From sequence record NC_070982.1: a DNA stretch of 64,000 bases; one strand, 5' to 3'. Numbering within the stretch: the stretch's first letter is position 1; each line of letters opens with the position of its first letter. Shown one piece after another: positions 14,149-34,446 of the stretch. Source of the stretch: Escherichia phage vB_EcoP-101114UKE3. Under the pieces are notes generated by a model. It worked only from the letters and a program-made list of their open reading frames with translations. It did no database searches and was not told the origin of the DNA. The position numbers and the translations under genes were made by a program.

Positions 14149-14159
14149 ATAATGTATAT
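14149..14159 (+). promoter_or_regulatory. phage-specific promoter-like motif TAATGTATATA
   Basis: motif 36 nt upstream of ATG 14195; near-identical copies upstream of three minus-strand genes. Confidence 0.5.
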
Positions 14160-14194
14160 AGGAGGTAGGACATTTTTATTTATAAGGAGACGTT

Positions 14195-17100
14195 ATGGCT
14201 AATTTAAAATCGTGGGAAGAAGCTTCCAAAGCTCCTGCGTATCTGAACGCCTCTCCAGAGCAACAGGCTCAAATGAGAGAACAATACAAGGCAGCAGGGG
14301 GCACTATTCCTGAGACTCAACCACAAGAGCAACCACAACAAGAAGAACGAGGTGCTATTGGGGAGTTTGCTCAAGGTGTGTCTAACGCTCTTCAATCAGG
14401 TGGTGCTAACATTGCAGCTAGTGCTGCTAAAGGTTTAGGTGGGCTGGTAGAGATTGGTGAAAACTTAACTGGTTCGGAAACAAGCTATGGTAAGCGCATT
14501 CAAGAGAACTCTAAACAGTTGCTGGAAGAACGCTTATCTAAGATAGAAGATGGTTTTGGTAAAACAGCTGGTCAGTATGCTGGTGTTGCTGCTGATATTG
14601 GTTTGACAGTTGCAAACCCTGCTGTTGCTGCTGCTGTTATCGCAGCTCGTGAAACAGGTCGTGCTTATGCTGATCAAACTCCTAAAGAAGATGAAGATAA
14701 ATCAGTCTTAGATGCTGCTCTTGTTGGTGGTGCTAACTACGCTGCTCAGAAGATCCTTCCGGGCATGACTGGTACAGCTTCTACTACTCTTGGTCGTGTA
14801 GGACAAAGCGTAGCCTCTAACGCAGTTGCTGGTGCTAAGGGTGGTGCTATTGTTGGTGCTGCTGAAGCTCAGAACAAATATGGGGATGACACTACTCTAG
14901 CTAACGTATTAGAAGGGGCTATTGAAGAGGGTGCACTCGGTGCTGCTTATGGTGGGGCGATTGGTGGGGTTCATGGGTTAATAAGCCGTCCTAGCCCTCA
15001 AGTGTTTGATCGTACTCCTGAGCATGTTAAGACTGACATTGCTGCTGAAGATGAGGCTATTCGTAAAGCTGCTAACGCTGATGAACTTCGTGAAGCCTAT
15101 GCTAAAGCTGAGAATGCTAATGCTGCCTCTGCTTTAAACCTTCTGGATGAAAATGGTTTCCGAATCACAGATGCAGTTGCTATGGACTCTCCTGCTGTTC
15201 AGCGTATATTAAATACAGACCAAAGTCGTGCAGAGAAAGCTGCTACGGTTCAGAAAGATAGCTCTAATGTTCCCGGTCTCAATCCTCTCGCTTCTCCTAA
15301 GAAGACTCAAGGTAAAGCTTTTGCTGACAATGAGTACAACCAGAAACAAGCTGTGGCAATGAAAGATGCAATGGCTGACTACACTAAAGATAACACCAAA
15401 GCCCTTACTGATGTTCTAGACAACCTAGACCGAGAGTTAGTAGCTCTGAGAGCAAGTGGTGATTTTACTGGTAGTGCTATTGACATTAAAAACCGTACTC
15501 AAGCTGATCGTGATTTTATTGATGCTTATAAAACTTTTTACAGTGAAGCTAATCGTTTCAAAGCTCGTGATGGTGAAGACCTAAACAACTTCATTGATAA
15601 AGCTACTCAGTTGCAGAAGCTATCTGAAAATGTTTCTCCAGAAATGAAGAAGGCCATTGGTGGATTAAAGAAACTAAAAGGTATGCCTGAAGGTTTTAAC
15701 CCTATCCAAGATGCTTTCACTCTGAATAATACAGCTAAGTTCATGAGTAACCAAGACCGTGGTTGGACCTCTCTGACTGATGACGGTTTTCGTGAAGCTC
15801 CGGCTCCTGTGTTAGTTAAGAATCCTCTCGGTGCAGCCAAGTATGTACTTAACCGCTTTACTTCCGATCGTGCTCGTGCTCAACGTGAGAAGCAACAGTC
15901 AGCTAATAGTGAAGCTATCCGCTCTTTGGCTAGGGCTGATTTAGAAGTACAACGAGCTAGGACTCAGGCTGAAGAAGCAAGAGCAAAAATGGAAGAAGAA
16001 CCAACCACAGAAGACATCAAATTCCGTACTCAAAATGATGCACCTTCCGAACCGGTTCGTGAGGAGCCTTCTGCTACTACTGTGACGGAAGAAATTCCGT
16101 CCTCTCCAGCTCCAACTGAAACACCTCTTACTGCGAGGGATTTGGTTGCTCAAAGACGTGCTCTCCAACAAGCAGAGCTTAGACGTCAAGAAGCTGAAGC
16201 TGCTCAGGCTCAAGAAAGTGCTACACCAGAACCTGAACCACAGCAAGAAGCTCTTACAGCTAGAGAATTAGTAGCTCAGCGTAGGGCTGTAGCAGAGGCT
16301 AAGAAACGTCAAGAGGCAGAAGAAGCAGAACGTGCTAAAGAAGCTCCTGAGGAAGCCGTAGAAGAGCCTAAAGAGAAACCTGAGCCATTACCTGCTCGTG
16401 CTCCTAAAGCTCCTGAGAAGGCTCCTGAGCCTGTTAAACCGTCACTTGGTGTAGAGCGTCTAGCTTCTATGTCAACTGCTGCTCGTCAAGCAACGAAAGA
16501 CCGTGCTGATCGATTTGCTCGTTCTTTGTATTCGGCTGCTGCTAAAGCTAAAGCCACTGCGGAAAATTTCCTTTCTTACAAGGGAGATCCTAAAGAGCTT
16601 ATGCGTCGTATCCGTCAGGAAGACCAAGCAAACAACACACAGCGTCATGAAGAGATGGCTAGAAACCAACTAGCTTCACAGCAAGGCATTGCTTCTGCTA
16701 AATCTCAACATGTTCGTGCTTCTTTTGCTGATTGGGTGAAAGAACGTGGGTTGCCTTCTGATATTGCTACTAAGGCTTTACGGGCTGAAGAGAAAGGTTT
16801 AGGTGGGAACGTCACAAGTCTAGATTCACTGAAGCGAAGAGCTGAGCGTTTATATCAGAAACAAAGAGATGATGAGTTTGACCGTCTCTATCGAGAGGCT
16901 CTGGAAGAGAATAAAGCTTTTGATAAGAGAGATGCTCCTAAACTGGTAGACCAGAAGAAAGAGCTTCAGGATGAAATTGGTGCGTTGCTTGATGCTGAAC
17001 CGTTACGTCCTGCTCAGAAAGATGCTATGCGTAGGATTATGGAAGACTTCGTGGAGAGTAAGTTTAAATCTTCAGAGAAAGCTGGAAGGGTTGAGGCTTT

Positions 17101-18640
17101 GGAAGTTGGTCAGATGAAGGATGTGTGGGATGGGTTTATTAATACCTATAACCGAGAAGTTAACATGTTCAACAAGGCTAACAAGAATTCTCAATACGAA
17201 GCAGCAGCTAAACACTTGCAAGCACGTCAAGAACGTCTTGAGACGCTCCGTAACAGAGCTAAAGCTCGCAGTGATGCTAAGGCAGCCATGGAGGCTGAGA
17301 AGCAGTCCTTGGAGGCTATAGCGGCTCAGAAATCAGAGATAGAGAAGATGTTCAAAGAATTGCCTGAAAGTGTCAGAGAGGCTCAGGAAGGGCGTACTTT
17401 GAAACAGCTTGCTGCTCACCATGATAAGAACTCTCCAGTACCACCAGAGCGTTTCCGTAGTATCATTGAACGTATTCACAACGCTGAGAGTGATTACCTC
17501 GATCGCAAACGTCGTTTGACCGAAGCAGAGGAAGATGCTCGTGAAGCTAAGTGGAATAGGATGTATGAACAGGCTGAGGAAATGAACCGTAAGTTTGATA
17601 TCGATGCTAGAGTGAAGAGAGATAAGGCTCTGAAGGAAGCTCAAGAACGAGAGAATGACTTAATGGCAGTTCAACGTCAGCGTGACGACATTCATAAGCG
17701 TTTGGTCAATACTCTGGAAGAGAAGGGAGTTTCTAGAGAAGATGCTGAAGCATATGCTGGGTCTTATATGGATAATCGGTATGCTTTGTTAGAGAAACCA
17801 ATGACTCCAGTGGAACATCAGAATGCTCGTGCTCGTATCGAATCTGACGTAGAGAAGTTTGTTAAGAAATACGAAACAGCTACTCCAATCGAAAGAGAGA
17901 TTGCTAAAGCAACTGGTGATGCAGATGGGAAACCTTCTGACTTAGATGCAGAAACATTAAAAGCTATCGAAGATGCTCGTAAAGTTGATTCCGATTTTAA
18001 GAAACTCTTAGATGAAGAGAAGGAAATGGAGAAGATTCGTTCAGCTCTACCTGAAGATGAAAGATCTCAGGCGAACTCTGATATTCTGGAAAGTATTAAG
18101 AAACAGGAAGATGATTTTGCTAGCAAAGCAGAGAAAGCTTTTATTGAAGGGAAGGACTTGCAGGAGTTAGCGAGTGTTGCAGAAGTTCTAGATAGGGTTC
18201 ATGGTGCAGACAAGGCTGGTAACAACCGTCGATTTGTACGTGCTCTACAGACTGCTGCCGAGAACAAGAAACGTTATGGGGATAATCCAGTGGCTTGGTT
18301 TAGTGCTGATGATTACTCTGCTATTGCGAAACTTGGTGCTGCTTCGGCAGGTGGTAACAAATCTCGAGCACTTGAGAAAATCTTTGGTTCTACAGCAGAA
18401 CAAGCTAAAGGGAAACTTTTAGGGCGGGATGATGTAGCTAAGATTAGACGTGTGATTGAAGCGAATCCCAATGTTAAGATTCCTTCTTACAAGACAACTA
18501 CTCGACAAGAGTACATGCAGTTCTTGGAGAAGTATAATGACGAGGGAGAGTTGAAAGTCAAACGTGGTTCTCTGTCTGACAAGTTGGAGAGAGGTAAGCG
18601 TCAAGCTAAACTCCGTGTTAGAGTTCGAGCTAAGGAGTAA
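14195..18640 (+). CDS. very large internal virion/DNA-ejection protein (1481 aa)
   Basis: A/E/K/R-rich with long predicted coiled coils and repeated QRRA..EA segments; last gene of late operon. Confidence 0.55.
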   Translation: MANLKSWEEASKAPAYLNASPEQQAQMREQYKAAGGTIPETQPQEQPQQEERGAIGEFAQGVSNALQSGGANIAASAAKGLGGLVEIGENLTGSETSYGKRIQENSKQLLEERLSKIEDGFGKTAGQYAGVAADIGLTVANPAVAAAVIAARETGRAYADQTPKEDEDKSVLDAALVGGANYAAQKILPGMTGTASTTLGRVGQSVASNAVAGAKGGAIVGAAEAQNKYGDDTTLANVLEGAIEEGALGAAYGGAIGGVHGLISRPSPQVFDRTPEHVKTDIAAEDEAIRKAANADELREAYAKAENANAASALNLLDENGFRITDAVAMDSPAVQRILNTDQSRAEKAATVQKDSSNVPGLNPLASPKKTQGKAFADNEYNQKQAVAMKDAMADYTKDNTKALTDVLDNLDRELVALRASGDFTGSAIDIKNRTQADRDFIDAYKTFYSEANRFKARDGEDLNNFIDKATQLQKLSENVSPEMKKAIGGLKKLKGMPEGFNPIQDAFTLNNTAKFMSNQDRGWTSLTDDGFREAPAPVLVKNPLGAAKYVLNRFTSDRARAQREKQQSANSEAIRSLARADLEVQRARTQAEEARAKMEEEPTTEDIKFRTQNDAPSEPVREEPSATTVTEEIPSSPAPTETPLTARDLVAQRRALQQAELRRQEAEAAQAQESATPEPEPQQEALTARELVAQRRAVAEAKKRQEAEEAERAKEAPEEAVEEPKEKPEPLPARAPKAPEKAPEPVKPSLGVERLASMSTAARQATKDRADRFARSLYSAAAKAKATAENFLSYKGDPKELMRRIRQEDQANNTQRHEEMARNQLASQQGIASAKSQHVRASFADWVKERGLPSDIATKALRAEEKGLGGNVTSLDSLKRRAERLYQKQRDDEFDRLYREALEENKAFDKRDAPKLVDQKKELQDEIGALLDAEPLRPAQKDAMRRIMEDFVESKFKSSEKAGRVEALEVGQMKDVWDGFINTYNREVNMFNKANKNSQYEAAAKHLQARQERLETLRNRAKARSDAKAAMEAEKQSLEAIAAQKSEIEKMFKELPESVREAQEGRTLKQLAAHHDKNSPVPPERFRSIIERIHNAESDYLDRKRRLTEAEEDAREAKWNRMYEQAEEMNRKFDIDARVKRDKALKEAQERENDLMAVQRQRDDIHKRLVNTLEEKGVSREDAEAYAGSYMDNRYALLEKPMTPVEHQNARARIESDVEKFVKKYETATPIEREIAKATGDADGKPSDLDAETLKAIEDARKVDSDFKKLLDEEKEMEKIRSALPEDERSQANSDILESIKKQEDDFASKAEKAFIEGKDLQELASVAEVLDRVHGADKAGNNRRFVRALQTAAENKKRYGDNPVAWFSADDYSAIAKLGAASAGGNKSRALEKIFGSTAEQAKGKLLGRDDVAKIRRVIEANPNVKIPSYKTTTRQEYMQFLEKYNDEGELKVKRGSLSDKLERGKRQAKLRVRVRAKE

Positions 18641-18648
18641 ACAAGAAA

Positions 18649-18690
18649 AGCCCCCAACCTGTAAAAAGGAAGGGGGCTTCTTTATTTCTA
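18649..18690. terminator. bidirectional terminator at convergence of plus and minus transcription
   Basis: gccccc...gggggc hairpin flanked by T-run on plus strand and gcttttcttg on minus strand. Confidence 0.5.
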
Positions 18691-18757
18691 GATGTTAGAA
18701 TCCATCAAATTCATCATACATCCCAATTTTCTTCTTCAAAGTCAATCATAAAACCTC

Positions 18758-19057
18758 CTAGATTAAATCGTAATACTTAATAATATCAGAGAGCTTAAAC
18801 TCTCTAATGTCATTCTTGTCATTATCCCAAGCAGTCATTATCCAACAAGGTTTGCCCCCATTATGATAAGGGGAAGAAGCAACTGAGGTTCGTATAGGAA
18901 TAACGGAGCGGTCTGCAATCTCGCCTCTCCAATTACGATAGCTAAAGCGAAGAATTTGTTTCGTAGATACTTGATCATTTGTGCTTTCCTTGTTCATTGA
19001 TTCAAAGACTTCTTTTTCTTCAGGAGTCTCTAGATTTTTTAAATTCACGTCTTGCAT
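18758..19057 (-). CDS. hypothetical protein
   Basis: ATG 19057 (MQDVNL) with AGAGGA SD; track start 19180 would overlap HNH gene by 160 nt. Confidence 0.4.
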   Translation of the reverse strand: MQDVNLKNLETPEEKEVFESMNKESTNDQVSTKQILRFSYRNWRGEIADRSVIPIRTSVASSPYHNGGKPCWIMTAWDNDKNDIREFKLSDIIKYYDLI

Positions 19058-19424
19058 CGTTTTCCTCTTTAGTTTTAATCTTATGGCATGGTTCTTTACA
19101 TAAGACCTGAAAGCCATCTTTCTCAACCAAAGCTCTCTCAATAATCTCATCCCAAGTAGCTTCATGGTCCACTGGAACAATAGGCTCGATGTGGTCGACA
19201 GCCACCTCTTTCAGAGGAGAGTCATTACCGCACATGGCACACTTGTAGTGCATTGCCAGCTTGCCAGTCTTAGGATTGATTTTACGTTCTGTCTGAGCTT
19301 CTTTGAGAGCATCAAACATAGGCTTCCACTTTCTAGTCAGAGAACGAATCCCTGACTTAATGAAGGAGTTGTAACGTGCTTCAGTCCACTGATTTGAACA
19401 TCTTGTCTTCTCAGCCTTCGCCAT
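19020..19424 (-). CDS. HNH endonuclease
   Basis: CAMCG...VDHIEPI...CKEPCH zinc/HNH motifs. Confidence 0.6.
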   Translation of the reverse strand: MAKAEKTRCSNQWTEARYNSFIKSGIRSLTRKWKPMFDALKEAQTERKINPKTGKLAMHYKCAMCGNDSPLKEVAVDHIEPIVPVDHEATWDEIIERALVEKDGFQVLCKEPCHKIKTKEENDARREFKKSRDS

Positions 19425-19602
19425 AACCTACATCCATATCAGCGTCTTCCCAAATGCGTTTATTGACTCGGTGTGATTCTTTATCAGCACGAGGGATACG
19501 ACCTGTGCGACGATCAAATGCTTGGTGCTTAATCTTTTGATCTTTACGAGATTCACGAGTAGAGAAGTTTTCATCATACGAACGATAGTCAAATTTACCC
19601 AT
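19411..19602 (-). CDS. hypothetical basic protein
   Basis: ORF with coupled start/stop. Confidence 0.3.
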   Translation of the reverse strand: MGKFDYRSYDENFSTRESRKDQKIKHQAFDRRTGRIPRADKESHRVNKRIWEDADMDVGYGEG

Positions 19603-19612
19603 TATAATATCC

Positions 19613-20461
19613 TTATTCCCAAGTTTTATCTAACCATGACCAATCAAAGAGGTCACCTTCAGCTTGTCCAACGAAGAGCAATCGAGCGTTTTCTAACATC
19701 TTATCTTCTGCTTCTTCCTCGAACCTCTTATAGTATTCCATTCGTATAATATGATAAAGAGTCCACTTATCGAATACCTTCTCAATAAGTTTGATTGCAG
19801 CCTTGCTACCAATGCCTTTACGGCGCATAACCAAGTTGCCACCCCACATCATTTCAACCTTCTCACCACAACCGGGAATATTATCTGTATTATCCCCAAT
19901 CAACATTTGGTAGAAGAAATTCTGCCATGCTACTTCTTCTGATACATAATGAGGAGGTACTTCTTTCTGTCTTTCTCCACAAGCCCAACGATAATGCCAT
20001 CCGGGAGTGATTAACAAATCTTTATCACGAGTACAGATAATCGTATTCTTATCTCGTCTCTGTCTTTCAGCTAGGGCATCATCTGCCTCTCTCCCAAAGA
20101 CTTCTACATACTCGTAATTTTCTTTAATATAATCACTAACGTTCTGCCAGTGGTGGGGTCTTTCTCCCGGTGGGCGATTAGCTTTGTAGCCTTGCTGTTT
20201 AGCAATGTTAAATCGAAAGTTACCACCTTCACTGAAGTAAAAGATTGTTTTCTCACAACCTGACCTTGCAATGATTACATCAATTTTGTGTTGAAGTCGT
20301 TCAATCAAGAATCCATAATCAACTGGAACACGACCTGTGTCTAGAAAAGGATGCTCTTGTGTAAGAGCACCGACTTCATATCGCAGAACATCTGCATCCA
20401 CAATTGCTACTTCAGGATAGATTACATCAGACATAGAGTTCTCTCCGTGTCCGTACAACAA
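19613..20461 (-). CDS. 5'-3' exonuclease/flap endonuclease
   Basis: N-terminal VAIVDADVL and H3TH-like GIGSKAAIKLIEKV motifs. Confidence 0.7.
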   Translation of the reverse strand: MLYGHGENSMSDVIYPEVAIVDADVLRYEVGALTQEHPFLDTGRVPVDYGFLIERLQHKIDVIIARSGCEKTIFYFSEGGNFRFNIAKQQGYKANRPPGERPHHWQNVSDYIKENYEYVEVFGREADDALAERQRRDKNTIICTRDKDLLITPGWHYRWACGERQKEVPPHYVSEEVAWQNFFYQMLIGDNTDNIPGCGEKVEMMWGGNLVMRRKGIGSKAAIKLIEKVFDKWTLYHIIRMEYYKRFEEEAEDKMLENARLLFVGQAEGDLFDWSWLDKTWE

Positions 20462-21023
20462 TCCAGTTTAAATAATCTACTGCATCTTCTACAGTAGAAT
20501 TATTCGCTAGGTAGTATGTATTTCTCTGACTACCTTCAATGTAGGAACGAGAATCTCCTTTAAAATCACAACCTTCACGAATCACCTGAATTACCTGAAC
20601 ATGGAAATGTTTCTCTAGTTCTTCAACTTCGGCTTTGAACCCACCATCAGAGAAGACGATAACATCATTCTGTGATGGGATACGTTGTTGAATACTGCTA
20701 ACAGCAAGTTTACCCATGCAGGTCTCACCAAACATAGGCTTCAGGTAATTCTCGCTAGTTGCAATCATCAAGTCTCGAACTGACTTACCGTCCCATTCAG
20801 GACGGCTATGTTCTTTCCACTCACGATCGTTGTACAGCTCCATGAACTCATAAAGAGGTAGACCTAATGCAGCAGCAGCCACTCGATACATAGGCTCCTT
20901 AAAAGCCTTTACATGAGGCCTAAACTCGGTGTTACCAAGTGTTTTCTCTAACCAAGAATTAGCGATTGTATCTTTACCACAACCCGGTGGTCCATTCAGA
21001 ATTACTACTAATGGTTTACTCAT
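20427..21023 (-). CDS. P-loop deoxynucleoside monophosphate kinase
   Basis: Walker A GPPGCGKDT; size and context. Confidence 0.55.
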   Translation of the reverse strand: MSKPLVVILNGPPGCGKDTIANSWLEKTLGNTEFRPHVKAFKEPMYRVAAAALGLPLYEFMELYNDREWKEHSRPEWDGKSVRDLMIATSENYLKPMFGETCMGKLAVSSIQQRIPSQNDVIVFSDGGFKAEVEELEKHFHVQVIQVIREGCDFKGDSRSYIEGSQRNTYYLANNSTVEDAVDYLNWIVVRTRRELYV

Positions 21024-21673
21024 TATTGAATCATCCCTTGAAGATCTTCTTTATCAAAGTGCTTCTCTACTACCGCTTCATACAGATCACGATTCTCTGA
21101 ATAACGACGATAGAAGGTTCCGTGTGAAATTCCCAACTCTTGCTGGATGTGATCATGTGGGATGCCGAGAAAGAGCATTGAGAACATGCTTGCCATCTTA
21201 CGGTTTTCCATAATGTCACTCAGGTCTTGGAAGAAGAAAAAGATTCTAGATTCCAAGAACGGGTCTCCAGTAGAATCATGCTTATCCATCGCAATCTCTA
21301 AAGGACTTTCCCATGAATTCATCTCAGGAGGTCTAAACATATCAGCCTCTGGAATAGAGTAGATACGTCGGTCTCCAACTGTCTGGCGATTAGAACGAAT
21401 CGACCAGATGATATTCTTGACACGATAAGTCATGTGCTCAATATCTTTTTCATCAGTGAGCAGAAGTTCTTCTTGCTTTGCAAACACAAAACGCCAAGCG
21501 TTCAGTAATACTTCCTGAGCAACATCCTCTGCCTCGTGATAGTCTTTAATGTCATACATAAAATACTTATGCACAACTTTCCAATTCTCTCGATAGAATT
21601 CATCGAAGGTTGGGTAGTACTTAATAGGTATGCCATGAATACGATAGCGTGTGGGTGTTGTCTTTTTCTTCAT
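21023..21673 (-). CDS. phage ECF-like sigma factor
   Basis: region-2-like [16 protein letters not shown] and C-terminal [24 protein letters not shown]. Confidence 0.65.
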
Positions 21674-21697
21674 AAGTCATCCTTAACTTACTTTACA

Positions 21698-21922
21698 TTA
21701 AACTACACAGAATAAATACATTGCTGTTTCAGGGGAAGGTATGTGGTCACTAGGATATCTAACCCTAATCCACTCATCATCTTCTGCTACATAATAAGCC
21801 CAATAAGACCCATTTTCATTAATAAAGAACTTGAAGGTACAACCAAAGATTTGGTTATTGTGTTCCCATACTGCATGAAACTGAGTAACACCTTCTGGTA
21901 TTGTAAGTTCCGCTCTGATCAT
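21698..21922 (-). CDS. hypothetical protein
   Basis: 74-aa ORF coupled to sigma gene. Confidence 0.35.
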   Translation of the reverse strand: MIRAELTIPEGVTQFHAVWEHNNQIFGCTFKFFINENGSYWAYYVAEDDEWIRVRYPSDHIPSPETAMYLFCVV

Positions 21923-22179
21923 TGTATTCCTCTCTCCTTTAGAGCTTTAAGCAAACCGTTGTGGTTAGCGGCACAGGTTGTATAAGTGTCCTGATACCAC
22001 TCGAGTGTTGTTGCAAGTGCTACTCCCTGTCCACTCTGAAGTAAAGGGAGGTCTACATCACATTCAGCTTTTAGGTTTGTTGGTAAGGGCATTAGCTGCC
22101 TGCTGTTGTCGCTCGTTGAACAAGCTGACATACTCATCACTAGCACACACATTGTAAAAAACTGGCTTAGTCTTTTCAT
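21919..22179 (-). CDS. o-spanin candidate (secreted/lipoprotein, Rz1-like)
   Basis: signal peptide ending SMSACS; overlaps 3' end of i-spanin gene in another frame. Confidence 0.55.
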   Translation of the reverse strand: MKRLSQFFTMCVLVMSMSACSTSDNSRQLMPLPTNLKAECDVDLPLLQSGQGVALATTLEWYQDTYTTCAANHNGLLKALKERGIQ

Positions 22180-22411: not shown

Positions 22412-22423
22412 TTTAACTCCAAC

Positions 22424-22446
22424 GAAAAAAGCCACCCGAAGGTGGC
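22424..22446 (-). terminator. intrinsic terminator (TTCG hairpin plus U-run)
   Basis: minus-strand gccacc-ttcg-ggtggc followed by tttttt. Confidence 0.5.
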
Positions 22447-22470
22447 TAAGCTATTACAAGGAGAGATTCA

Positions 22471-23211
22471 TTAGAAAGGGCTGTCATCTTCTTCAAAGGT
22501 AGACTGCGGCTCTTCGTTAATAGTAGGGATACTTGGAGTAGCATCTTTCTGTTCAGTATCAGAAGCTTTAGTAACTTCACGACCAGCCAGAGGGATGTTC
22601 TTAGCATCATTAGCTTGGGTCAGAAGATTACGTTGGAATGGGAAGATTGCTTGATAAGCAGCCAAGTTAGCATCAGTCTCAGCATACGGTTCGAAGAAGA
22701 TCAACTCACTACGAGGGGCACCTACAGCATCACGATATTTGGTAGGGATTGGAGTGATACTCTTAATGGAGTTTTTCTTCTCACCAGCTTTGTTTACATA
22801 GGAATTAACCAGAATGTTAACAGGCTGACCTAGCAGCATATCTTTAAACCAACCCAAATCACCTTTCAGTGCTTGAACACTTGGGTCGATCATTTTAATC
22901 AGATTCAGAATACCAGAGTTCTTAGCTCGTGGGTTTACGTCGAAAGTTTTAAACTGGCAAGCAGGACGAGGGTCCAGAGGTTTGCCTTCATTATCAGTCC
23001 CTGTTGCATCTACGCCAATCAGCTCAAAAGCTAAGTCCATACGGAAAGCTGGGTTCTTAGGGGTAACTGCTTTGGTCTTAGGGTCAATCCAAGGGTCACG
23101 ATTGTGAACACCTAAACCTACAACACGAACAATACGTGCTTCGTACTCACCATCAGGGATTACATCGTAGTTGGATTTACGGGATACAGACAGTTCAGGG
23201 ATCATAGACAT
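22471..23211 (-). CDS. ssDNA-binding protein candidate
   Basis: acidic C-terminal tail ending EEDDSPF, as in SSB and T7 gp2.5. Confidence 0.5.
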   Translation of the reverse strand: MSMIPELSVSRKSNYDVIPDGEYEARIVRVVGLGVHNRDPWIDPKTKAVTPKNPAFRMDLAFELIGVDATGTDNEGKPLDPRPACQFKTFDVNPRAKNSGILNLIKMIDPSVQALKGDLGWFKDMLLGQPVNILVNSYVNKAGEKKNSIKSITPIPTKYRDAVGAPRSELIFFEPYAETDANLAAYQAIFPFQRNLLTQANDAKNIPLAGREVTKASDTEQKDATPSIPTINEEPQSTFEEDDSPF

Positions 23212-23268
23212 ATTAATATTTCCTTATATAAATTTAAGATTGTTGCTCTCTTTGAGCGGTTTGTATAC

Positions 23269-23279
23269 TATATACATTA
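23269..23279 (-). promoter_or_regulatory. promoter-like motif TAATGTATATA (minus)
   Basis: about 60 nt upstream of SSB start. Confidence 0.45.
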
Positions 23280-23341
23280 CACTTATACAGATAAGGTTCT
23301 ATTATACTATAACCTTTTTGGTAGTAGATAATGACAAGTAG

Positions 23342-23352
23342 TAATGTATATA
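23342..23352 (+). promoter_or_regulatory. promoter-like motif TAATGTATATA (plus, divergent)
   Basis: exact motif on plus strand in 410-bp ORF-free region; no downstream plus-strand gene. Confidence 0.35.
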
Positions 23353-23625
23353 TGGTATAGCTAGTAAAGCTATTGCAGGCTTGTATATTGGGCAATCATT
23401 GTAACCCTTGCAAGTACCGAAGGGCAGGAGACACCTGCGAGATAAAATAGAGAATTAAGGAAATCCTTGATTTAGGTTGTAGGGACTCCTAGGGACTTTG
23501 ATTCTCTATTTAAAAGAATATTAATTACTTACTACCTAAATAATTAACTAACTTACTTAAACCAAACTCAAGAATAATAGATAAAAAGATTATTCCTAAG
23601 AAAGCTAAAAAGTAAAGGATATAAG

Positions 23626-24246
23626 TTACCATTCAAGTAAACCTTTAAAGTTAGTTTGTTCTACTATCCTCTGATAAGGTAAGTTAGATTCTGCTTGTTT
23701 GCTTAACACCTCTTGTACTTTATCAGTAATTGAATAATCTTTTTGTAATAAAGAAGCTACCCACTCTTTCCTACTTTCCAGTTCTTTTCTAATCTCTTGC
23801 AGAGACACAGCTCTGTAATCAATTTGTTCCATAGAAGTACAGAAGTATCTCCAATCTCTGATAGTAGAATTATGAGTATGAGCATAGATATTATACTTTC
23901 CTCTCATTTCATCAGAGTGAATAGGAATATGAGTTACCCAAAACTCTTTGTACTTATAATCACCACTGATGTGTCTAAAGACTTTCATCATATCAGGGAG
24001 AAGTTCTAATCTGTCATGGTTTCCTAAGACAAGATGTTTCTCTCCTTTTACTTCAGCGATAATATCAAGTGCATATTTCTCAAACACCCAATCACCTGTA
24101 AAGAAAGTTTTATCACGTTTAGTAACATGGTCAAACGCTGCTAAGATAGCTTTGTCGTGTTCTTCAATACTACTAAACTTCTTCCTAAAGTTACAGATGT
24201 TACGATGGCCTAGGTGACCATCACCTGCAAAATAAACTTCAGCCAT
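23626..24246 (-). CDS. calcineurin-like metallophosphoesterase
   Basis: GDGHLGH ... GNHD motifs. Confidence 0.65.
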   Translation of the reverse strand: MAEVYFAGDGHLGHRNICNFRKKFSSIEEHDKAILAAFDHVTKRDKTFFTGDWVFEKYALDIIAEVKGEKHLVLGNHDRLELLPDMMKVFRHISGDYKYKEFWVTHIPIHSDEMRGKYNIYAHTHNSTIRDWRYFCTSMEQIDYRAVSLQEIRKELESRKEWVASLLQKDYSITDKVQEVLSKQAESNLPYQRIVEQTNFKGLLEW

Positions 24247-26381: not shown

Positions 26382-26693
26382 CTACTTCTCCACCACAAAG
26401 AGGTTAACTTCAATGAAAGTTTCGTATTGTGTTGACTCCTGCTTACGGGTGTAGTAGAAATGACGACCTTCTAATGCACCTCCGTACTGAGTGGCACATC
26501 TTTTAACCATCTCTTTTATCACATCTACAACTGATTCGCCTTTCCACGGACGTAACCCCTGAGTTGGGACTTTTGCTGTACAGGTTACTTGTGTGTAACC
26601 TACATCTTGTAGAGATATCTCAAGAATCAGCTTTGCCCAAGCATCAAAATTAAGCTTGGGGTTATATTTAACTTCAGTTTTGATATCAATCAT
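26382..26693 (-). CDS. hypothetical protein
   Basis: 103-aa ORF coupled downstream of DNA polymerase. Confidence 0.4.
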   Translation of the reverse strand: MIDIKTEVKYNPKLNFDAWAKLILEISLQDVGYTQVTCTAKVPTQGLRPWKGESVVDVIKEMVKRCATQYGGALEGRHFYYTRKQESTQYETFIEVNLFVVEK

Positions 26694-28537: not shown

Positions 28538-28553
28538 CACCCACTCCTTATAG

Positions 28554-28907
28554 TTATTGGTATATTAAGTCTGTGAATGCTTGGTTGTCTTCAACAATAT
28601 CTAAAGCTTCATATGAATCAGACAATTCATCCACATAAAAGACTGCTGGAATATCTTCTGCTCGCTGTCTACGAGATTCCCTTTGTTCATTGATATTTCT
28701 TTGAACCTGTGCAAGTTTCATACCCCACACCTGCTCATACAACTCTGGATATTTGTCACTAACCACTACATAATTTCGAGCTGGTTGGTTTCTATTAATC
28801 TTCGCTGTCAACTCAATAAACTGGCGAAACTCTTGAATAGAGAGGTTGTCATGAATATTATCCCATTTGAGAACGCAGTGACGTTCTAGGCATTGAGGTA
28901 CTGGCAT
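28554..28907 (-). CDS. hypothetical protein
   Basis: 117-aa ORF. Confidence 0.4.
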   Translation of the reverse strand: MPVPQCLERHCVLKWDNIHDNLSIQEFRQFIELTAKINRNQPARNYVVVSDKYPELYEQVWGMKLAQVQRNINEQRESRRQRAEDIPAVFYVDELSDSYEALDIVEDNQAFTDLIYQ

Positions 28908-28910
28908 AAC

Positions 28911-29180
28911 TTACTCCACTGTCGGGAATGGTTTTAGGTTGTTCATGGCTGTACGAACATCAGCACAGATTTCAGGATCACGATAAGAGAGGAATTTACC
29001 ATCCTTACCACGAATCATTACATTAGTCCGTGATGTTTTATTAGGCAATAAAGAAATCCCTCCAATAAGATGGTTGGTAGGGTGTTGTCCTTGATTAACC
29101 TTGTAGTCATGAGTCTGAGCGTCACCATTAAAGAGATGATCACGAATTTGGATTAAGCTAATCTTCATATTATGCACCAA
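28911..29180 (-). CDS. small protein, tandem paralog
   Basis: shares TxRTNVxxRGxDGKFxSxRD...NLKPFP with next gene. Confidence 0.4.
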   Translation of the reverse strand: MVHNMKISLIQIRDHLFNGDAQTHDYKVNQGQHPTNHLIGGISLLPNKTSRTNVMIRGKDGKFLSYRDPEICADVRTAMNNLKPFPTVE

Positions 29181-29421
29181 AGTTAGGGAAAGGTTTCAGA
29201 TTTTCAATAGACTTAGCAATACGCTTAGGAACAGCCTTATCACGGAAGGAGATGAACTTTCCATCAGGACCACGAAGGGCTACATTAGTACGAGCTGTTG
29301 TTTTGTTAAACTGAATCATCTCAACAGAGCTTGTAACATTTTCTACAGGAAAAGTATAGCTCTCAGTTGTGTTCAGAGAAGGGAGGAAATCAGTTACAGT
29401 GATGTAAGTTACTTTAGACAT
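29170..29421 (-). CDS. small protein, tandem paralog
   Basis: start MSKVTYI at 29421 after terminator hairpin. Confidence 0.4.
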   Translation of the reverse strand: MSKVTYITVTDFLPSLNTTESYTFPVENVTSSVEMIQFNKTTARTNVALRGPDGKFISFRDKAVPKRIAKSIENLKPFPNFGA

Positions 29422-29442
29422 ATTTATTACCTTAGGTTCTAT

Positions 29443-29472
29443 AAAAGAAAAGGCCACCCGAAATGGGTAGCC
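29443..29472 (-). terminator. intrinsic terminator
   Basis: minus-strand ggcuaccc-auuuc-ggguggcc (G-U on this strand) then uuuucuuuu. Confidence 0.5.
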
Positions 29473-29477
29473 TTATA

Positions 29478-29792
29478 TCAACTTGAGCTTAAAGCTCCTT
29501 TGCGACCGCCTGCTGATTTTCCAGCACGATCTCCACTTTTGCCGCCGTTCGAGCGATTTCGAGAGACTGATTCAACACGTAAGTTACTTGACGCATTAGA
29601 ACCTCCCGACTTGATTGATCGTTTGTGTCCAACATCTTTACCTCGGACAGCAGCTTTTCCATCGCGCTTTTCAACGATGCGACGTGCACGGTGGCGCTGA
29701 GCATCTCCGCTCTTGCTACCAACGCCGGTCTCACCCCTTGCGATTGCAGTTCTTCGTTCTTGTGCATAATCACGTTTCGCCTTATCGGTCAT
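29478..29792 (-). CDS. basic low-complexity protein
   Basis: strong AAGGAG SD before MTDKAK; K/R/G/S-rich; overlapping alternative frame 29489..29773 has weak start context. Confidence 0.3.
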   Translation of the reverse strand: MTDKAKRDYAQERRTAIARGETGVGSKSGDAQRHRARRIVEKRDGKAAVRGKDVGHKRSIKSGGSNASSNLRVESVSRNRSNGGKSGDRAGKSAGGRKGALSSS

Positions 29793-29826
29793 CATAACTC
29801 CTTAATATATCAGTGTACACTAAGGA

Positions 29827-29836
29827 GTATACATTA
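29827..29836 (-). promoter_or_regulatory. promoter-like motif TAATGTATAC
   Basis: variant of TAATGTATATA about 35 nt upstream of start at 29792. Confidence 0.35.
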
Positions 29837-29839
29837 TGT

Positions 29840-30577
29840 TTATGATTTTTCAGATTCCATTGCTTTAACAATAGCTTTACAGAAACCTGAACGAACAATA
29901 TCATCCGATTCGCCATCTACTAGAGCGGCAAATTCAAATAACTGGTGACGGTAGATGAAATCAGTAGCCCAATCAAGACCGCTCTCACCACGCATGTCGT
30001 GCTGGTTAGTGTCCCCCATGCAGAACATCTGAGAGGTTTCACCAAGACGTGTCATGATTGAATATGCTTCATCAGGAGTAGTGTTCTGGAACTCATCAAC
30101 AATCACGATAGCATCGTTGAACGAGCGACCACGTAGATATTCCAGAGGTACGAACTCAATATTACCATTACCTACTTGACATTCGTAGAAACCTTTACCG
30201 TAGCGCTGAGTAATAACATCAACGATTGGCATTAGGTATGGTTCAAACTTCTCACGAAGCCCACCGGGAAGTAATCCAAGACTATTACCCATACCAACAG
30301 CAGGTCGGCTTAGGATAATCTTCTCAATCTTCCCACTCTTCAGAGCATCAATCACTGTAGAAGTGATTACGAAGGTCTTACCACAACCAGCAGGAGCATC
30401 TGTGAATACAACCTGTTTGGTTTTAATTGCATCAAGCAGCTCACTCTGGAATTGGTTCTGAGGTACTACCGGCTTAGCAAGAACTACTTCTTCAAATTCC
30501 CGCTTTCCTTTCTTGGTGACGAGAGCTTCACGACGTAATTCTCTCCGTGATGCTTTCCGAGATTCTCTACGACTCAT
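29840..30577 (-). CDS. phoH: PhoH-like ATPase
   Basis: Walker A APAGCGKT and PhoH-like core. Confidence 0.8.
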   Translation of the reverse strand: MSRRESRKASRRELRREALVTKKGKREFEEVVLAKPVVPQNQFQSELLDAIKTKQVVFTDAPAGCGKTFVITSTVIDALKSGKIEKIILSRPAVGMGNSLGLLPGGLREKFEPYLMPIVDVITQRYGKGFYECQVGNGNIEFVPLEYLRGRSFNDAIVIVDEFQNTTPDEAYSIMTRLGETSQMFCMGDTNQHDMRGESGLDWATDFIYRHQLFEFAALVDGESDDIVRSGFCKAIVKAMESEKS

Positions 30578-30755
30578 TTCCTACCTCCGTGTTCTTCATA
30601 TAAGAAGCTACAGGATTTACACTCTGAGCAATGGATACCTATAACCTTAATTTCGACAAACTTCTTATTCTTCCCTTTAGTCGGGGAGCCTTTGGCAAGC
30701 TCCCGTATTACTTTCGAGTCCAAATGGAGAAGAGTTGATTCACATTTAAAACATT

Positions 30756-31076
30756 TCAGATTGATTTGTCCTTATGTAAACGGTATACTTCAGTAGCCAT
30801 ACAAGCTATACGCTCGTCATGTGGGAGATGCATACCAGTAGAGCCGTTCCATCCTTCGAACTCTGAATCAAAGAATCCAATAGGCTCGGGATACATCTCT
30901 TGCAAGGTGGTTAAGTCATCAGCCACTTGTTGCCACTTATCGTCAGACCAGATTGGGTCATCCAACCAATAATACAAATAGGAGTGGATAAGCATCTGTG
31001 TTCTATGTCGTTTAATCACTTCAGCAGGACTGATTTCATTTCCGTTACCAGTCCTAAATGTATTATTGTTGATCAT
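30756..31076 (-). CDS. NAD-dependent DNA ligase domain-Ia-like small protein
   Basis: HSYLYYWLDDPIWSDDKWQQVADDLTTLQEMYPE matches LigA N-terminal H-x-YLY-x-D-P-x-I-D-EYD-L-LE-HPE pattern; no adenylation domain. Confidence 0.45.
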   Translation of the reverse strand: MINNNTFRTGNGNEISPAEVIKRHRTQMLIHSYLYYWLDDPIWSDDKWQQVADDLTTLQEMYPEPIGFFDSEFEGWNGSTGMHLPHDERIACMATEVYRLHKDKSI

Positions 31077-31552
31077 TCCAAAACCCTTTCTTCTAAATCA
31101 TAAAAGATTTGATTTGTCCCATTATTCTCAACAAGCACTGTTCCATTATCTAGCAGGGTAGCAACTTGGGAATAAGGAATGTTCTTTAACATCAGAGCAT
31201 TAATGGTCGGCTTGTTTTTGAAGTAAGCGACAGGCTCAACATAGAAGGAAATCCCACGACTTCCTTTAATTGGGGTGCTTGAAGATAGAACCCAAATTGT
31301 TTCTGGCTTGTCTATTTCCTTTTCAACACCAACCTCAACAAGAGAGTCAGCAGCGAAACCTACAGGACGCCTAGAAGAACCAAGCAACCGAACATATCCC
31401 GGTAATTTTGACATATTAGACCAACTACCAGTGTTTTCATTAAACACAGGTCTTACATCACCATATGCCCAAACCAGATTATCATAGTCACGGGCTATGT
31501 ATTTAACCCAATCAGGAACATCATACTCCCTTCCTTCAAAAATAGCTTTCAT
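31073..31552 (-). CDS. hypothetical protein
   Basis: 159-aa ORF. Confidence 0.4.
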   Translation of the reverse strand: MKAIFEGREYDVPDWVKYIARDYDNLVWAYGDVRPVFNENTGSWSNMSKLPGYVRLLGSSRRPVGFAADSLVEVGVEKEIDKPETIWVLSSSTPIKGSRGISFYVEPVAYFKNKPTINALMLKNIPYSQVATLLDNGTVLVENNGTNQIFYDLEERVLE

Positions 31553-31747
31553 TTAGATAACCTTGTGCTTATAGATGTTAGGGTTGTAGTAATGCAACCA
31601 GTTTATGTATTGTTTCTGTTCAAGGTAGTGTCTGCAATCATGACAAAAAGCATGACCCAAACCTGTTTCCTCGTTCAGCTTGAAGTTGATAAGAAGCTTC
31701 TGCTTTTGACAGAAGCTACATGCTTTAGTGGGCTTCACGTAATGCAT
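31553..31747 (-). CDS. small zinc-ribbon protein
   Basis: CSFC...CHDC cysteine pairs; start chosen to minimise overlap with ThyX. Confidence 0.35.
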   Translation of the reverse strand: MHYVKPTKACSFCQKQKLLINFKLNEETGLGHAFCHDCRHYLEQKQYINWLHYYNPNIYKHKVI

Positions 31748-32375
31748 CCCATGAGATTGGGAAAAGTTTACGAAGCTCTTCATCAACAGTTGATGCGAAC
31801 ACTCGTACTTCATACTGAGCATGGTCGGACAGTCGCTGACGACATAACTCTGACCAGCCATATAAAGAACCTGTCCACACCCACTCAGTGATCATACCTT
31901 GAGGTAGAACGAATCGGGCTTGCTCTGGAGCAATAAACTTAATCAACTCATCATATGACTCAAGAGCTGTTTCATATGCCCGATTAATCAGAACTAGTGC
32001 AGAGTTTTGCGCTCCCGTGGTGAGGAGATTCCCCGCACCTGCATGGAGGTCCGAAGGTCTTTCAAAAATCTCTTTAGGGATGAAGAGTTCAACTGCTCCA
32101 TCTTTATACCGCCGGGACATTTCGTTCCACGAGAATCCAACTTGATGCTTGCCCAGCTGTCTCGCAATTGCGATTGGCGCTTTGCATCGGAAGCTAATTG
32201 TCGGATGGCGGAATGGTGTGACATGCTTTTCTCTGGCAAGGAACTTGATAAGGCGTTCATCTCGTTCATTTAACTCTCCTTCACGAGTAACCCCAAAGGA
32301 AACTCGAGCTGCATTAACAACAGATTTATCAGAACCCATTGCTTCAATTAGTGTTGCTTGTAATTGTTCGTTCAT
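31725..32375 (-). CDS. thyX: flavin-dependent thymidylate synthase-like (ThyX)
   Basis: PFRHPTISFRCKAPIAIARQLGKHQVGFSWNEMSRRY aligns to ThyX signature region, with K-H-Q in place of R-H-R. Confidence 0.7.
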   Translation of the reverse strand: MNEQLQATLIEAMGSDKSVVNAARVSFGVTREGELNERDERLIKFLAREKHVTPFRHPTISFRCKAPIAIARQLGKHQVGFSWNEMSRRYKDGAVELFIPKEIFERPSDLHAGAGNLLTTGAQNSALVLINRAYETALESYDELIKFIAPEQARFVLPQGMITEWVWTGSLYGWSELCRQRLSDHAQYEVRVFASTVDEELRKLFPISWDALREAH

Positions 32376-32389
32376 CCTTGAATTCTTCC

Positions 32390-32605
32390 TTAGTAATGAA
32401 TCTTTTTATAAATCAGGTTGCTTCCACTTTCTGTTTCAATCCCTTTCTGGATTGTAATCTTAGAAGCACCGGTATTAGCAATTTTTAAAGCTCGTTTAAA
32501 GCGGCGAGCCTCTCTCCGTGTTGTGTATGAGGAGAAGCTAGGGATTGTACTATCAAAATTAAACCACTTAACTACCCAAAAAGTAATCCAAGGTTTCTTT
32601 TCCAT
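32390..32605 (-). CDS. small protein, TR(Q/R)EAR family paralog
   Basis: TRREARRFKRAL ... KKIHY shared with 34470..34685 and 34685..34897. Confidence 0.4.
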   Translation of the reverse strand: MEKKPWITFWVVKWFNFDSTIPSFSSYTTRREARRFKRALKIANTGASKITIQKGIETESGSNLIYKKIHY

Positions 32606-32606
32606 A

Positions 32607-32882
32607 TTAAATACCTTTCAGAGCTGTATCTAAAAACGCACGGAGGTTTGATTCAGTTTGCATACCGGACAAGCTGTAGTGAGCACCACTGTTCATGTTA
32701 GGAACCACAAAGGCTGGGATACTGCGAACACCATATTCAATGGCTCGCTCTCGACCATTACCTTCAGAGATATTTACTTCTTCAACTTCTACGTTGTAAT
32801 CAGCTACAACTTTCTTAAACACAGGAGCCATAGCTGCACACGGAGCACAGGAATTACTATAAAACTTAATTACTTTACTCAT
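32607..32882 (-). CDS. thioredoxin/glutaredoxin-like protein
   Basis: start MSKVIKF; CAPC active-site motif. Confidence 0.65.
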   Translation of the reverse strand: MSKVIKFYSNSCAPCAAMAPVFKKVVADYNVEVEEVNISEGNGRERAIEYGVRSIPAFVVPNMNSGAHYSLSGMQTESNLRAFLDTALKGI

Positions 32883-33072
32883 TTTATTCCTTGTTAATAA
32901 ACAGATTGATATGACGTTGGGTAGCAGGAACAACAATAAAAGATTTATACTGACCTTTTGCTAAGTCATGAGCAATCTTCTTTGTCTGACTAAGACCCAT
33001 TACACAGCCACTAACAATAATAGCATGTGCTTGTAGCTCTTCAGGTAGGTTTAGTTTCACTCTTTGGGTTCC

Positions 33073-33258
33073 TTATAGCATACAAAGAATAATAACAAGA
33101 GGTAGTGTTATAGCAAAATGTACCAGAACAACACTACCTAGCTTGATAGCTTTAACATCCTCTTCTGCTGGGTTTTCTTTAATTGCTAAATTTCGAGCTT
33201 TATATATAACAGTACCAACTATTAACGACCACACGGCCCACACAATCAGTGAAATCAT
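33073..33258 (-). CDS. small membrane protein (tandem paralog)
   Basis: two TM segments; similar to 33268..33489. Confidence 0.45.
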   Translation of the reverse strand: MISLIVWAVWSLIVGTVIYKARNLAIKENPAEEDVKAIKLGSVVLVHFAITLPLVIILCML

Positions 33259-33267
33259 ATCAAACCC

Positions 33268-33489
33268 TTATGCAGTCAACAGGTGGAGAAGGAAAGGAAT
33301 GACAACAGAGAAGACTACCAGAGCAATGCTGCCATGTTTAATGGGTTTAGCGTCATTCGGGTTCTCTTTAAGCATCTGTTTCTGAGCTACATAAACGATA
33401 CCGCCAACAAAAATTGCCCATACAGACCATACGATTGCTGAAAACATACTCATATCCTTATAAAGAAGTTCGCCCCACCTCTTGAACAA
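33268..33489 (-). CDS. small membrane protein (tandem paralog)
   Basis: two TM segments. Confidence 0.45.
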   Translation of the reverse strand: MFKRWGELLYKDMSMFSAIVWSVWAIFVGGIVYVAQKQMLKENPNDAKPIKHGSIALVVFSVVIPFLLHLLTA

Positions 33490-33510
33490 AGAGACAGGGC
33501 GGAGGTTTGA

Positions 33511-34086
33511 TTAGTAAGACACATCACCACTGGAGTGGGACATGTTGCTCTTGACGAAGTAACAGAACTTGCCAAGACCTTCATTAATTTCTTGAAGCAT
33601 ACTCTGGTCCACTGGATAGGTGCACAAGTCTGAATCAAACTCATCCATCTTCTCAATGATACACATAAGAGTCATGCACATGTCGGAAAGCATACCGTCC
33701 ATGTCAAGATCAGCGTTACCTTCTCGGAACCAAGCATGACCTAAATAATTACTAGCAGTAGCATCCACTTTAACACAATGAAAGCGCATACGCTCTGCTA
33801 TTCGGTCGCCTGCCTCACGAGCATAATCTTCTAGTTCATCGAACATACCATGAACACCTTGGAAACCAGCTCCAGAGACGTTCCAGTGGTAGTTCTTTGC
33901 TTTGATGTGTAGAAGTTCAAGGTTAGCTTGCACACCACACAAGATGTGTTCTAAGCTGTTACCGCTAATCAGTTTATTCATTCCCTCAAGACGAGAGATA
34001 GAAGAGTCAGTAGCAGAGAATGGGTTGCTAGAACCCACTCGTGTTAGTTCTGGTAAGTCGAAGACATTATTATGCATTAGGTGCAT
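33511..34086 (-). CDS. Dps/ferritin-like protein
   Basis: YHWNVSGAGFQGVHGMFDELEDYAREAGDRIAER matches Dps ferroxidase-site region. Confidence 0.55.
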   Translation of the reverse strand: MHLMHNNVFDLPELTRVGSSNPFSATDSSISRLEGMNKLISGNSLEHILCGVQANLELLHIKAKNYHWNVSGAGFQGVHGMFDELEDYAREAGDRIAERMRFHCVKVDATASNYLGHAWFREGNADLDMDGMLSDMCMTLMCIIEKMDEFDSDLCTYPVDQSMLQEINEGLGKFCYFVKSNMSHSSGDVSY

Positions 34087-34399
34087 CCCCTTCTAAGTTA
34101 GTTGAATTAGCTACATTACGAGCAATGTTATCCATGACCTGCTGTGTAATAACAATGCAATTCTGAGGGTCTACTGATTTAGAACGCCCCATCTCAGGGT
34201 CATAGACTTTGACTCGCTTGGCTGTTGAGCCAGTAACTTGCAACACTTTGAGAAGATAGCCTTGGTTTCCAATAGACCATGCAACAACATCACGATTCTT
34301 GATATAACGACCAAGCATGTCACGATGATAGAACTGCTGCATAACTTTAGCTTTGCTAATCTCTTCAGATGGCGGGGCCACTTTACTCAAATCTAACAT
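34070..34399 (-). CDS. hypothetical protein
   Basis: second ATG (MLDLSKV, 34399) has AGGAG SD; promoter motif just upstream. Confidence 0.4.
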   Translation of the reverse strand: MLDLSKVAPPSEEISKAKVMQQFYHRDMLGRYIKNRDVVAWSIGNQGYLLKVLQVTGSTAKRVKVYDPEMGRSKSVDPQNCIVITQQVMDNIARNVANSTNLEGDAPNA

Positions 34400-34435
34400 A
34401 ACTCTCTCCTGTTTCATACAATATTCTTATACTGT

Positions 34436-34446
34436 ATATACATTTG
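34436..34446 (-). promoter_or_regulatory. promoter-like motif AAATGTATATA
   Basis: about 37 nt upstream of start at 34399. Confidence 0.45.

Follow-up and report, generated by a model that had tools for sequence, protein, structure and literature searches.

Phage phiEco32 is the structural and biochemical model of phage sigma replacement, with gp36 as the sigma factor and gp79 as its co-activator, and the accepted map of gp36-dependent transcription in this phage comprises six promoters. Here, we describe orthologues of these promoters in a stretch of 64,000 nucleotides (nt) from Escherichia phage vB_EcoP-101114UKE3 (NC_070982.1), together with a further copy of the promoter motif at 23342(+), which points away from every gene and probably directs the synthesis of a structured non-coding RNA (ncRNA) of about 156 nt. 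The whole stretch is called the window, and motif counts refer to it unless the complete 75.7-kb genome is named. The six phiEco32 promoters reportedly trace back to Pavlova et al. 2012, as later papers cite it.

The known promoters are grouped into late (P6, P13, and P26) and middle (P40, P58, and P68) promoters (PMC8948821 Table S3, PMC4331800, PMC4281155). They share the consensus tAATGTAtA, with AATGTA at -14 to -9, and transcription starts 6-8 nt downstream of it; a first reading of the window, made by a model from the letters alone (the sequence-only reading), had rightly ascribed this consensus to phiEco32 (PMC8948821, PMC4331800, PMC4281155, PMC12276001). The individual elements are TAATGTAgA for P6, TAATGTATA for P13, P26, P40, and P58, and aAATGTATA for P68 (PMC8948821 Table S3). 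When the six promoters were found again in silico, only the strand of the downstream gene was scanned (PMC4331800). A cryo-electron microscopy study of 2025, in which P68 was the promoter of the open complex (PDB 9m7y), placed AATG at -14 to -11. In this complex the C-terminal domain of gp36 contacts -37G and -34A through R187 and Y186, and mutating these bases abolishes transcription. The same study reported that gp79 activates P26 and P68, and that P26 is gp36/gp79-dependent in vitro (PMC12276001).

Motif copies and a probable orphan promoter

Exact copies of the 9-mer TAATGTATA were found at 14150(+), 23271-23279(-), 23342(+), and 29828-29836(-), and the one-mismatch version AAATGTATA was present once, at 34437-34445(-). 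The longer 11-mer TAATGTATATA was exact at 14150-14160(+), 23269-23279(-), and 23342-23352(+). An exact-match scan thus recovered the copies that the sequence-only reading had listed, with two amendments. The site given as 14149 exists but begins one position later, and the copy at 29827 matches the 9-mer but not the 11-mer, reading TAATGTATACT instead. The near-copy listed at 34436 is AAATGTATATA at 34435-34445(-). Four exact 9-mers compare with 0.62 expected, and none of 100 shuffles reached four; when one mismatch was allowed in the 11-mer, the enrichment was weak (6 versus 1.64 expected, with 2 of 100 shuffles reaching 6). A scan of the whole 75.7-kb genome, proposed as a check by the sequence-only reading, returned as the only further sites the P6 and P13 orthologues outside the window, namely TAATGTAGA 5' of the gene 6 orthologue and TAATGTATA 5' of the gene 13 orthologue.

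None of the five promoter-site copies lies inside a conserved gene. The sequence-only reading had held that motifs equally frequent in coding regions would speak against promoters; no exact copy was found in any conserved gene. In a crude gene map, in which about 10% of the window is intergenic, 23271 and 23342 count as coding because a non-conserved open reading frame (ORF) of 53 amino acids (aa), 23234..23395, had been retained in it. All copies except 23342(+) face a gene, and the start codon, counted from the motif's first base, follows at a distance of 45 nt for the gene at 14195, 68 nt for the gene 40 homologue (ATG 23211), 41 nt for ATG 29795, and 28 nt for ATG 34417.

The sites at 14150, 23271, 29828, and 34437 lie upstream, and on the same strand, of the orthologues of genes 26, 40, 58, and 68, as established by synteny with phiEco32 (NC_010324), whose order is matched gene for gene. 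By this comparison, the four sites are the positional orthologues of P26, P40, P58, and P68, which bears out the promoters proposed from the sequence alone. To this extent known biology was found again, and the phiEco32 promoter map was transferred to another phage. A scan of phiEco32 itself returned exactly the Table S3 variants at the expected places, and that phage holds the same seven sites at syntenic positions. A chance origin of the copies, in intergenic DNA rich in A+T, has next to no probability. The weak enrichment of the relaxed 11-mer is what such a reading could call upon, but it does not fit the counts of the exact 9-mer, nor the location of the sites outside conserved genes with the correct orientation throughout, and the synteny with experimentally mapped promoters already refutes it.

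The sigma factor that the sequence-only reading had placed at 21023..21673 was confirmed as the gp36 orthologue by its match to chain F of PDB 9m7y. In an alignment with the residues described in PMC12276001, all DNA-contacting residues are kept (E79, H80, Y83, R84, W90, S94, Y186, and R187). For the four orthologous promoters, the element, the positions, and the sigma contact residues are the same as in phiEco32, gp79 is present, and nothing material differs. The sites would be -10-like elements read by E. coli RNA polymerase carrying gp36, aided by gp79, and the four orthologous promoters would drive late gene 26 and three middle operons, with predicted starts at ~G14165, ~A23264, ~29821, and ~34430.

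The remaining copy, at 23342(+), differs from the published six in being outside their list, in pointing away from every gene, and in having non-coding DNA behind it. It is preceded by the -35 region element TTGGTAGTAGATA, an exact 13-mer with a single further copy in the window, at P68; both copies are separated from the 9-mer by 11 nt, and the same holds in phiEco32. The identity with P68 includes -37G (G23320) and -34A (A23323). Among the seven promoters, -34A is present in all, and -37G in P68, the 23342(+) promoter, P6 of phiEco32, and P58 of the phage studied here. The two promoters differ in the 9-mer, which is aAATGTATA at P68 and the full-consensus TAATGTATA at the orphan promoter, and in what lies behind them: P68 drives middle genes for proteins, the orphan promoter no ORF. 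With AATG at -14 to -11, the predicted start is A23357, 7 nt past the element, and the pairing of a hairpin, P1, begins at the same base.

In the 2-kb stretch around the orphan promoter, identity is 100% to Escherichia phage vB_EcoP-101114BS3 (MZ234015.1), a Kuravirus, and 80-95% to about 96 more phiEco32-like phages of the Gordonclarkvirinae (Kuravirus and Suseptimavirus). In an alignment of 17 phages, a TGGTAGTA block and (G/A)TAATGTATA are invariant; TGGTAGTA is kept in all relatives, and, with metagenomic relatives included, 23 of 24 distinct related sequences retain the 9-mer unchanged. The only relative with TAATATATA at this place is the metagenome contig L032 (ERZ1034915 NODE-75, ~8935-8945), which could carry a natural promoter-down variant or an assembly error. 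Phage phiEco32 carries the same exact copy at 36704(+), in the gap of 315 bp that separates genes 40 and 41, and the P40 element is 63 bp away. The spacer between P40 and the orphan promoter contains an insertion of ~120 bp in the myPSH2311 group (L014 (myPSH2311) 490-620, also L006; columns 121-240 of alignment A1) and a deletion of ~11 bp in SR02 and MN05. Because the spacer takes insertions and deletions, the two divergent promoters need no fixed spacing. The site is absent from the published six (Table S3 of PMC8948821), a statement that covers the later literature, as Pavlova et al. 2012 may mention it, and nothing is annotated on the + strand at this locus in the records of SU7 and 4E8. 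Taken together, 23342(+) can credibly be read as a seventh gp36 promoter, built like P68.

The sequence-only reading had described the surroundings as a 410-bp ORF-free region. This did not hold in full, as two ORFs called mechanically, each of 50 aa or longer, overlap the region, and the gap shrinks to 313 bp (23212-23524) when a conserved 35-aa ORF is counted (the phi32_41 homologue, Table 1). Two candidate reading frames within the gap were rejected. The 53-aa ORF on the - strand, which spans both promoter elements, is annotated in the source record as hypothetical protein 101114BS3_016, and a similar ORF exists in phage 4E8; its frame is not kept among relatives, so the annotation across both promoters is probably spurious. 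A 25-aa ORF on the + strand is likewise not kept in frame. Within the core, indels of 1-2 nt separate close relatives, and thus there is no conserved reading frame.

The predicted RNA and alternative explanations

Downstream of the predicted start, the conserved sequence can be divided into the hairpin P1, a central module, and the hairpins P3 and P4 (Table 1). RNAalifold recovered P1, P3, and P4 unaided. In P1, two pairs show changes on both sides (UA/GC; CG/UA/AU) in 7 cells of the alignment, and none of 500 shuffles reached this cell count or the covariation score; in addition, a G-C pair is changed to G-U in nine sequences. The stem variants are AUAGUU/AACUAU in ECBP2, AUAGA/UCUAU in KBNP1711 and Bas89, and AGAGUUA/UAACUCU in SR02 and MN05. 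The central module is exchangeable. Type A is present here and in phiEco32; type B, of 76 nt, is present in 12 phage records, folds as a three-way junction, and contains one compensatory change from U-A to C-G in ECBP2. The two alleles reassort with the P1 variants, as seen in SR02 versus MN05. Module B was also considered as a mobile element, and this was rejected, as in the 12 records it was found at this locus only.

The 3' domain of about 90 nt is nearly invariant and is under strong purifying selection. The bin 23450-23499 has a mean pairwise identity of 0.96, the highest of the 2 kb compared, the flanking bins have values of 0.28-0.62, and conservation ends at the last base of P4. The palindromes and the direct repeat noticed in the sequence-only reading are present, the repeat being TAGGGACT at 23480-23487 and 23490-23497. 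Both copies are shortened from GGG to GG together in 5 of 21 aligned sequences (ECBP2, XT32, Paul, TH34, and mgL049).

The helices are not equivalent on the two strands. On the + strand, 68 helix cells are G-U pairs that would be A-C mismatches on the - strand, versus 1 the other way; standard pairs account for 98.8% on the + strand versus 90.1% on the - strand, and the minimum free energy is -45.5 kcal/mol versus -36.4 kcal/mol. For P4 alone, every variant reaches -20.4 to -24.5 kcal/mol on the + strand versus -14.3 to -19.0 kcal/mol on the - strand. The bias therefore favors the same strand that the orphan promoter would transcribe. A non-coding transcript from 23342 had been suggested in the sequence-only reading; the P68-type -35 element, the conservation in 23 of 24 sequences, the compensatory changes in P1 at the predicted start, and the G-U bias all lend it support. 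We consider it likely, from these comparisons, that the orphan gp36 promoter makes a structured ncRNA of about 156 nt, its activity, exact ends, and function being predicted.

Several points weigh against this interpretation. The activity of the promoter and the RNA ends are both deduced from sequence comparison. Covariation is confined to P1 and one pair of module B, and P3 and P4, being invariant, are uninformative on pairing, so that a site acting at the DNA level would fit them equally well. In contig L032, TAATATATA changes the essential -11G to A, yet the downstream sequence is kept. A search for an antisense target elsewhere in the phage yielded only chance-level 10-12-mers. Furthermore, the base of P4 is A-U rich and is followed by UUUAAAAG on the + strand, and a terminator scan detected no intrinsic terminator after P4 on that strand and none in 23212-23524 on either strand. 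A discrete species of 156 nt is therefore an assumption.

Two other explanations were weighed against the orphan RNA gene. The hairpins might serve the leftward mRNA, as a 3' end, an RNase III site, or an insulator between gene 41 and P40, or they might be a protein-binding DNA site, with the rightward TAATGTATA silent or incidental. P3 and P4 indeed fold on the - strand too, where UUUU(U)AU follows P4, but the pairing favors the + strand, and the terminator scan of the gap was empty in this direction as well. The invariance of the core would fit any sequence-specific site, and its retention in L032 despite the mutated -10-like element points the same way. However, a silent motif would not be expected to preserve its -35 element of 13 nt and its -10 element of 9 nt, with the distance between them fixed, in 23 of 24 sequences amid neighboring indels, and P1 begins exactly at the predicted start. 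Overall, we regard this explanation as quite improbable.

Alternatively, the orphan promoter and the DNA downstream of it could form a transcription-activated replication origin, with the gp36 transcript as its primer or as the RNA of an R-loop, and with the A+T-rich stretch 23513-23560 as the DNA that would unwind. The 48 nt of this stretch, which follow P4, contain 83% A+T, 2% G, and 15% C, but they are partly the phi32_41 ORF and are replaced in several relatives. The promoter has no gene downstream and lies within a replication-gene cluster, with genes for DNA polymerase, exonuclease, and primase-helicase nearby, and gene 40 is annotated as a single-stranded DNA-binding protein in some records; no report of a Kuravirus origin was found in the literature consulted. 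The joint change of the duplicated TAGGGACT copies is what iterons for one binding protein would show, but there are only two short repeats, and no DnaA boxes were seen. A change of skew at 23.4 kb is lacking, a test that is uninformative because GC skew follows gene orientation. The strand-specific G-U pairs and the covariation in P1 speak for selection on a folded RNA, which origins of the T7/T4 type do not need. An origin of this kind appears unlikely to us, although it is compatible with an RNA gene, as the RNA could be the primer.

Several relationships for the predicted RNA were also searched for. With a permissive E-value, no Rfam 15 family was near threshold for 23200-23650, and the best hits (E of 1.2 or more) fell well short of gathering scores. 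A host homologue or mimic was rejected, as blastn gave no match in 5,426 E. coli genomes. A CsrA sponge was considered as well; sRNAs that sequester CsrA/RsmA are rich in GGA motifs, most of which sit in the loops of hairpins, whereas the four GGA motifs in the 93-nt core are not significantly enriched (p = 0.09, shuffling) and most are predicted to be paired. In distant relatives (7-11, GAP52, and Proteus, Aeromonas, and Vibrio phages), only ~75-250 bp are present upstream of the gene 40 homologue. Where this gap survives, it contains one forward 7-11-type promoter; in GAP52 it contains an HNH endonuclease gene and no motif match. As these distant Grimontviridae relatives have no divergent promoter, the element is confined to the Gordonclarkvirinae.

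Neighboring features and additional observations

The coordinates of all features are summarized in Table 1. The + strand carries late genes up to 18.6 kb, and the - strand carries middle and early genes beyond. A tRNA gene at 53744-53816(-), in the early region, was the only Rfam hit in the window (Rfam tRNA, 70.8 bits).

Table 1. Promoters, predicted RNA elements, and genes, with positions in the window
Feature	Position	Strand	Basis or remark
P26 orthologue	14127..14158	+	TAATGTATA 14150-14158, upstream TAAGACCTA 14127-14135; position and flanks as in phiEco32 P26
Gene 26 orthologue, 1481 aa, first gene 3' of P26	14195..18640	+	phrog_14629 over full length; synteny with phi32_26
Phage sigma, gp36 orthologue	21023..21673	-	PDB 9m7y_F, E = 1e-117; phrog_1740 sigma factor
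Gene 40 orthologue, 246 aa, read from P40	22471..23211	-	Core gene; phage 7-11 counterpart gp048
P40 orthologue, TAATGTATA	23271..23279	-	Table S3; invariant in 17/17 phages (alignment A1); invariant leader follows
Orphan promoter, -35 region element TTGGTAGTAGATA	23318..23330	+	G23320 = -37, A23323 = -34
Orphan promoter, -10-like element TAATGTATATA	23342..23352	+	Seventh copy, outside published list
Predicted ncRNA, ~156 nt	23357..23512	+	5' end from promoter register; 3' end where conservation and P4 stop
P1, 5'-terminal hairpin AUAGCU-AGUAA-AGCUAU	23357..23373	+	Compensatory changes
Central module, type A allele (as in phiEco32)	23374..23423	+	Two unrelated alleles known
P3 hairpin GCAGG-AGACA-CCUGC	23424..23438	+	Stem invariant in 21/21 sequences; loop alone varies (A/C)
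P4, long 3' hairpin	23445..23511	+	Outer stem 15-16 bp including two G-U pairs
Direct repeat TAGGGACT x2 within P4	23480..23497	+	Copies 23480-23487 and 23490-23497
phi32_41 homologue, 35 aa, hydrophobic, bounds gap	23525..23632	-	phrog_24970, E = 4e-23; missing from several relatives
P58 orthologue, TAATGTATA, upstream of gene 29478..29795	29828..29836	-	Table S3
P68 orthologue, AAATGTATA 34437-34445 and TTGGTAGTAGATA 34457-34469, upstream of gene 34070..34417	34437..34469	-	Table S3
gp79 orthologue, sigma70 transcription inhibitor and gp36 co-activator	40932..41174	-	PDB 9m7y_G, E = 5e-37

Sequences upstream of the gp36 promoters form classes according to the -35 region. P68 and the 23342(+) promoter share TTGGTAGTAGATA, while the late promoters P13 and P26 have in common an upstream TAAGACCTA that begins 23 nt before the 9-mer (14127-14135 in the window, and likewise in phiEco32). 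These classes might explain why middle and late promoters differ in timing, or why gp79-dependence differs. Three one-mismatch copies could be weak additional promoters or chance matches: the P6 variant TAATGTAGA at 46113-46121(-), 15 nt before the ATG of a 366-aa ORF (44997..46097); the same variant at 54902-54910(-), within ORF 54634..54942; and TAATGTAAA at 21692-21700(-), 18 nt ahead of the sigma-gene ATG.

Two observations concern the leaders of gp36 transcripts. The P40 leader of gene 40, AACCGCUCAAAGAGAGCAACAAUCUU (23238-23263, - strand), is invariant in all 17 aligned phages, and a similar leader, GAGCGA..CAUAAACAG..UCUC, precedes the gene 40 homologue in the distant relatives 7-11 and PKM.Lu.22.1. 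It is a candidate for a translational operator of the putative single-stranded DNA-binding protein. The predicted P68 transcript starts with a short 5' hairpin, ACAGUAU-AAGA-AUAUUGU (34430-34412, - strand; UACAA/UUGUA in phiEco32), and it may be that gp36 transcripts generally carry such a hairpin at the 5' end.

Proposed role and comparison with described systems

For the favored explanation, the orphan RNA gene, we propose that transcription would start at A23357 in a gp36/gp79-dependent manner during the middle and late phases. The transcript would consist of P1, the exchangeable central module, the invariant P3, and the long invariant P4 with its duplicated GGGACU motif, and its invariant 3' domain would bind a partner, either protein or RNA, through which it would act. 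Unpaired segments are invariant and the GGGACU repeats change jointly, which suggests that this partner is sequence-specific. The RNA would also be complementary over its whole length to leftward transcripts that run on from genes 41 and beyond into gene 40; if both are made, a duplex is unavoidable, and it would be RNase III-sensitive. Because a terminator is lacking after P4, transcription would end in the G-poor 23513-23560, either Rho-dependently or by collision, and the 3' end would then be trimmed back to P4. Among possible roles, we prefer a trans-acting or partner-binding regulator over an origin primer, and the latter over a pure antisense insulator.

In a wider sense, Kuraviruses might carry a modular, phage-sigma-dependent RNA gene of ~156 nt that has so far gone unrecognized, and that would encode a trans-acting regulator or decoy aimed at a host or phage protein, or a primer RNA marking the replication origin of these phages; we put this forward tentatively. 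If true, the middle/late program of about 100 sequenced coliphages that are therapeutic candidates would gain a non-coding product from a seventh, P68-type promoter. An orphan promoter with its RNA would also explain why an intergenic stretch is the most conserved DNA of its neighborhood. In any case, the locus is a concrete candidate for a phage riboregulator or a replication origin.

Two described systems resemble the locus. The OOP RNA of phage lambda, 77 nt in length, is a product of the host sigma70 holoenzyme; a canonical terminator defines where it stops, and it overlaps a coding gene at that gene's 3' end. Like OOP, the predicted RNA would be a small structured transcript with its own promoter, opposite to a neighboring operon and antisense to read-through. 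In contrast to OOP, to which it has no sequence or Rfam relationship, it is predicted to be phage-sigma-dependent, has ~156 nt, lacks a canonical terminator, and would overlap intergenic read-through only. The primary origin of T7 contains the phi1.1A/B promoters and an A+T-rich region, and oriF and oriG of T4 consist of a middle promoter and an unwinding element. The locus shares with these origins a phage-specific promoter without an obligatory gene, followed by very A+T-rich DNA, in a region of replication genes. It differs from them in that the promoter and the A+T-rich stretch are ~156 nt apart, and the sequence between them is conserved, structured, and not rich in A+T.

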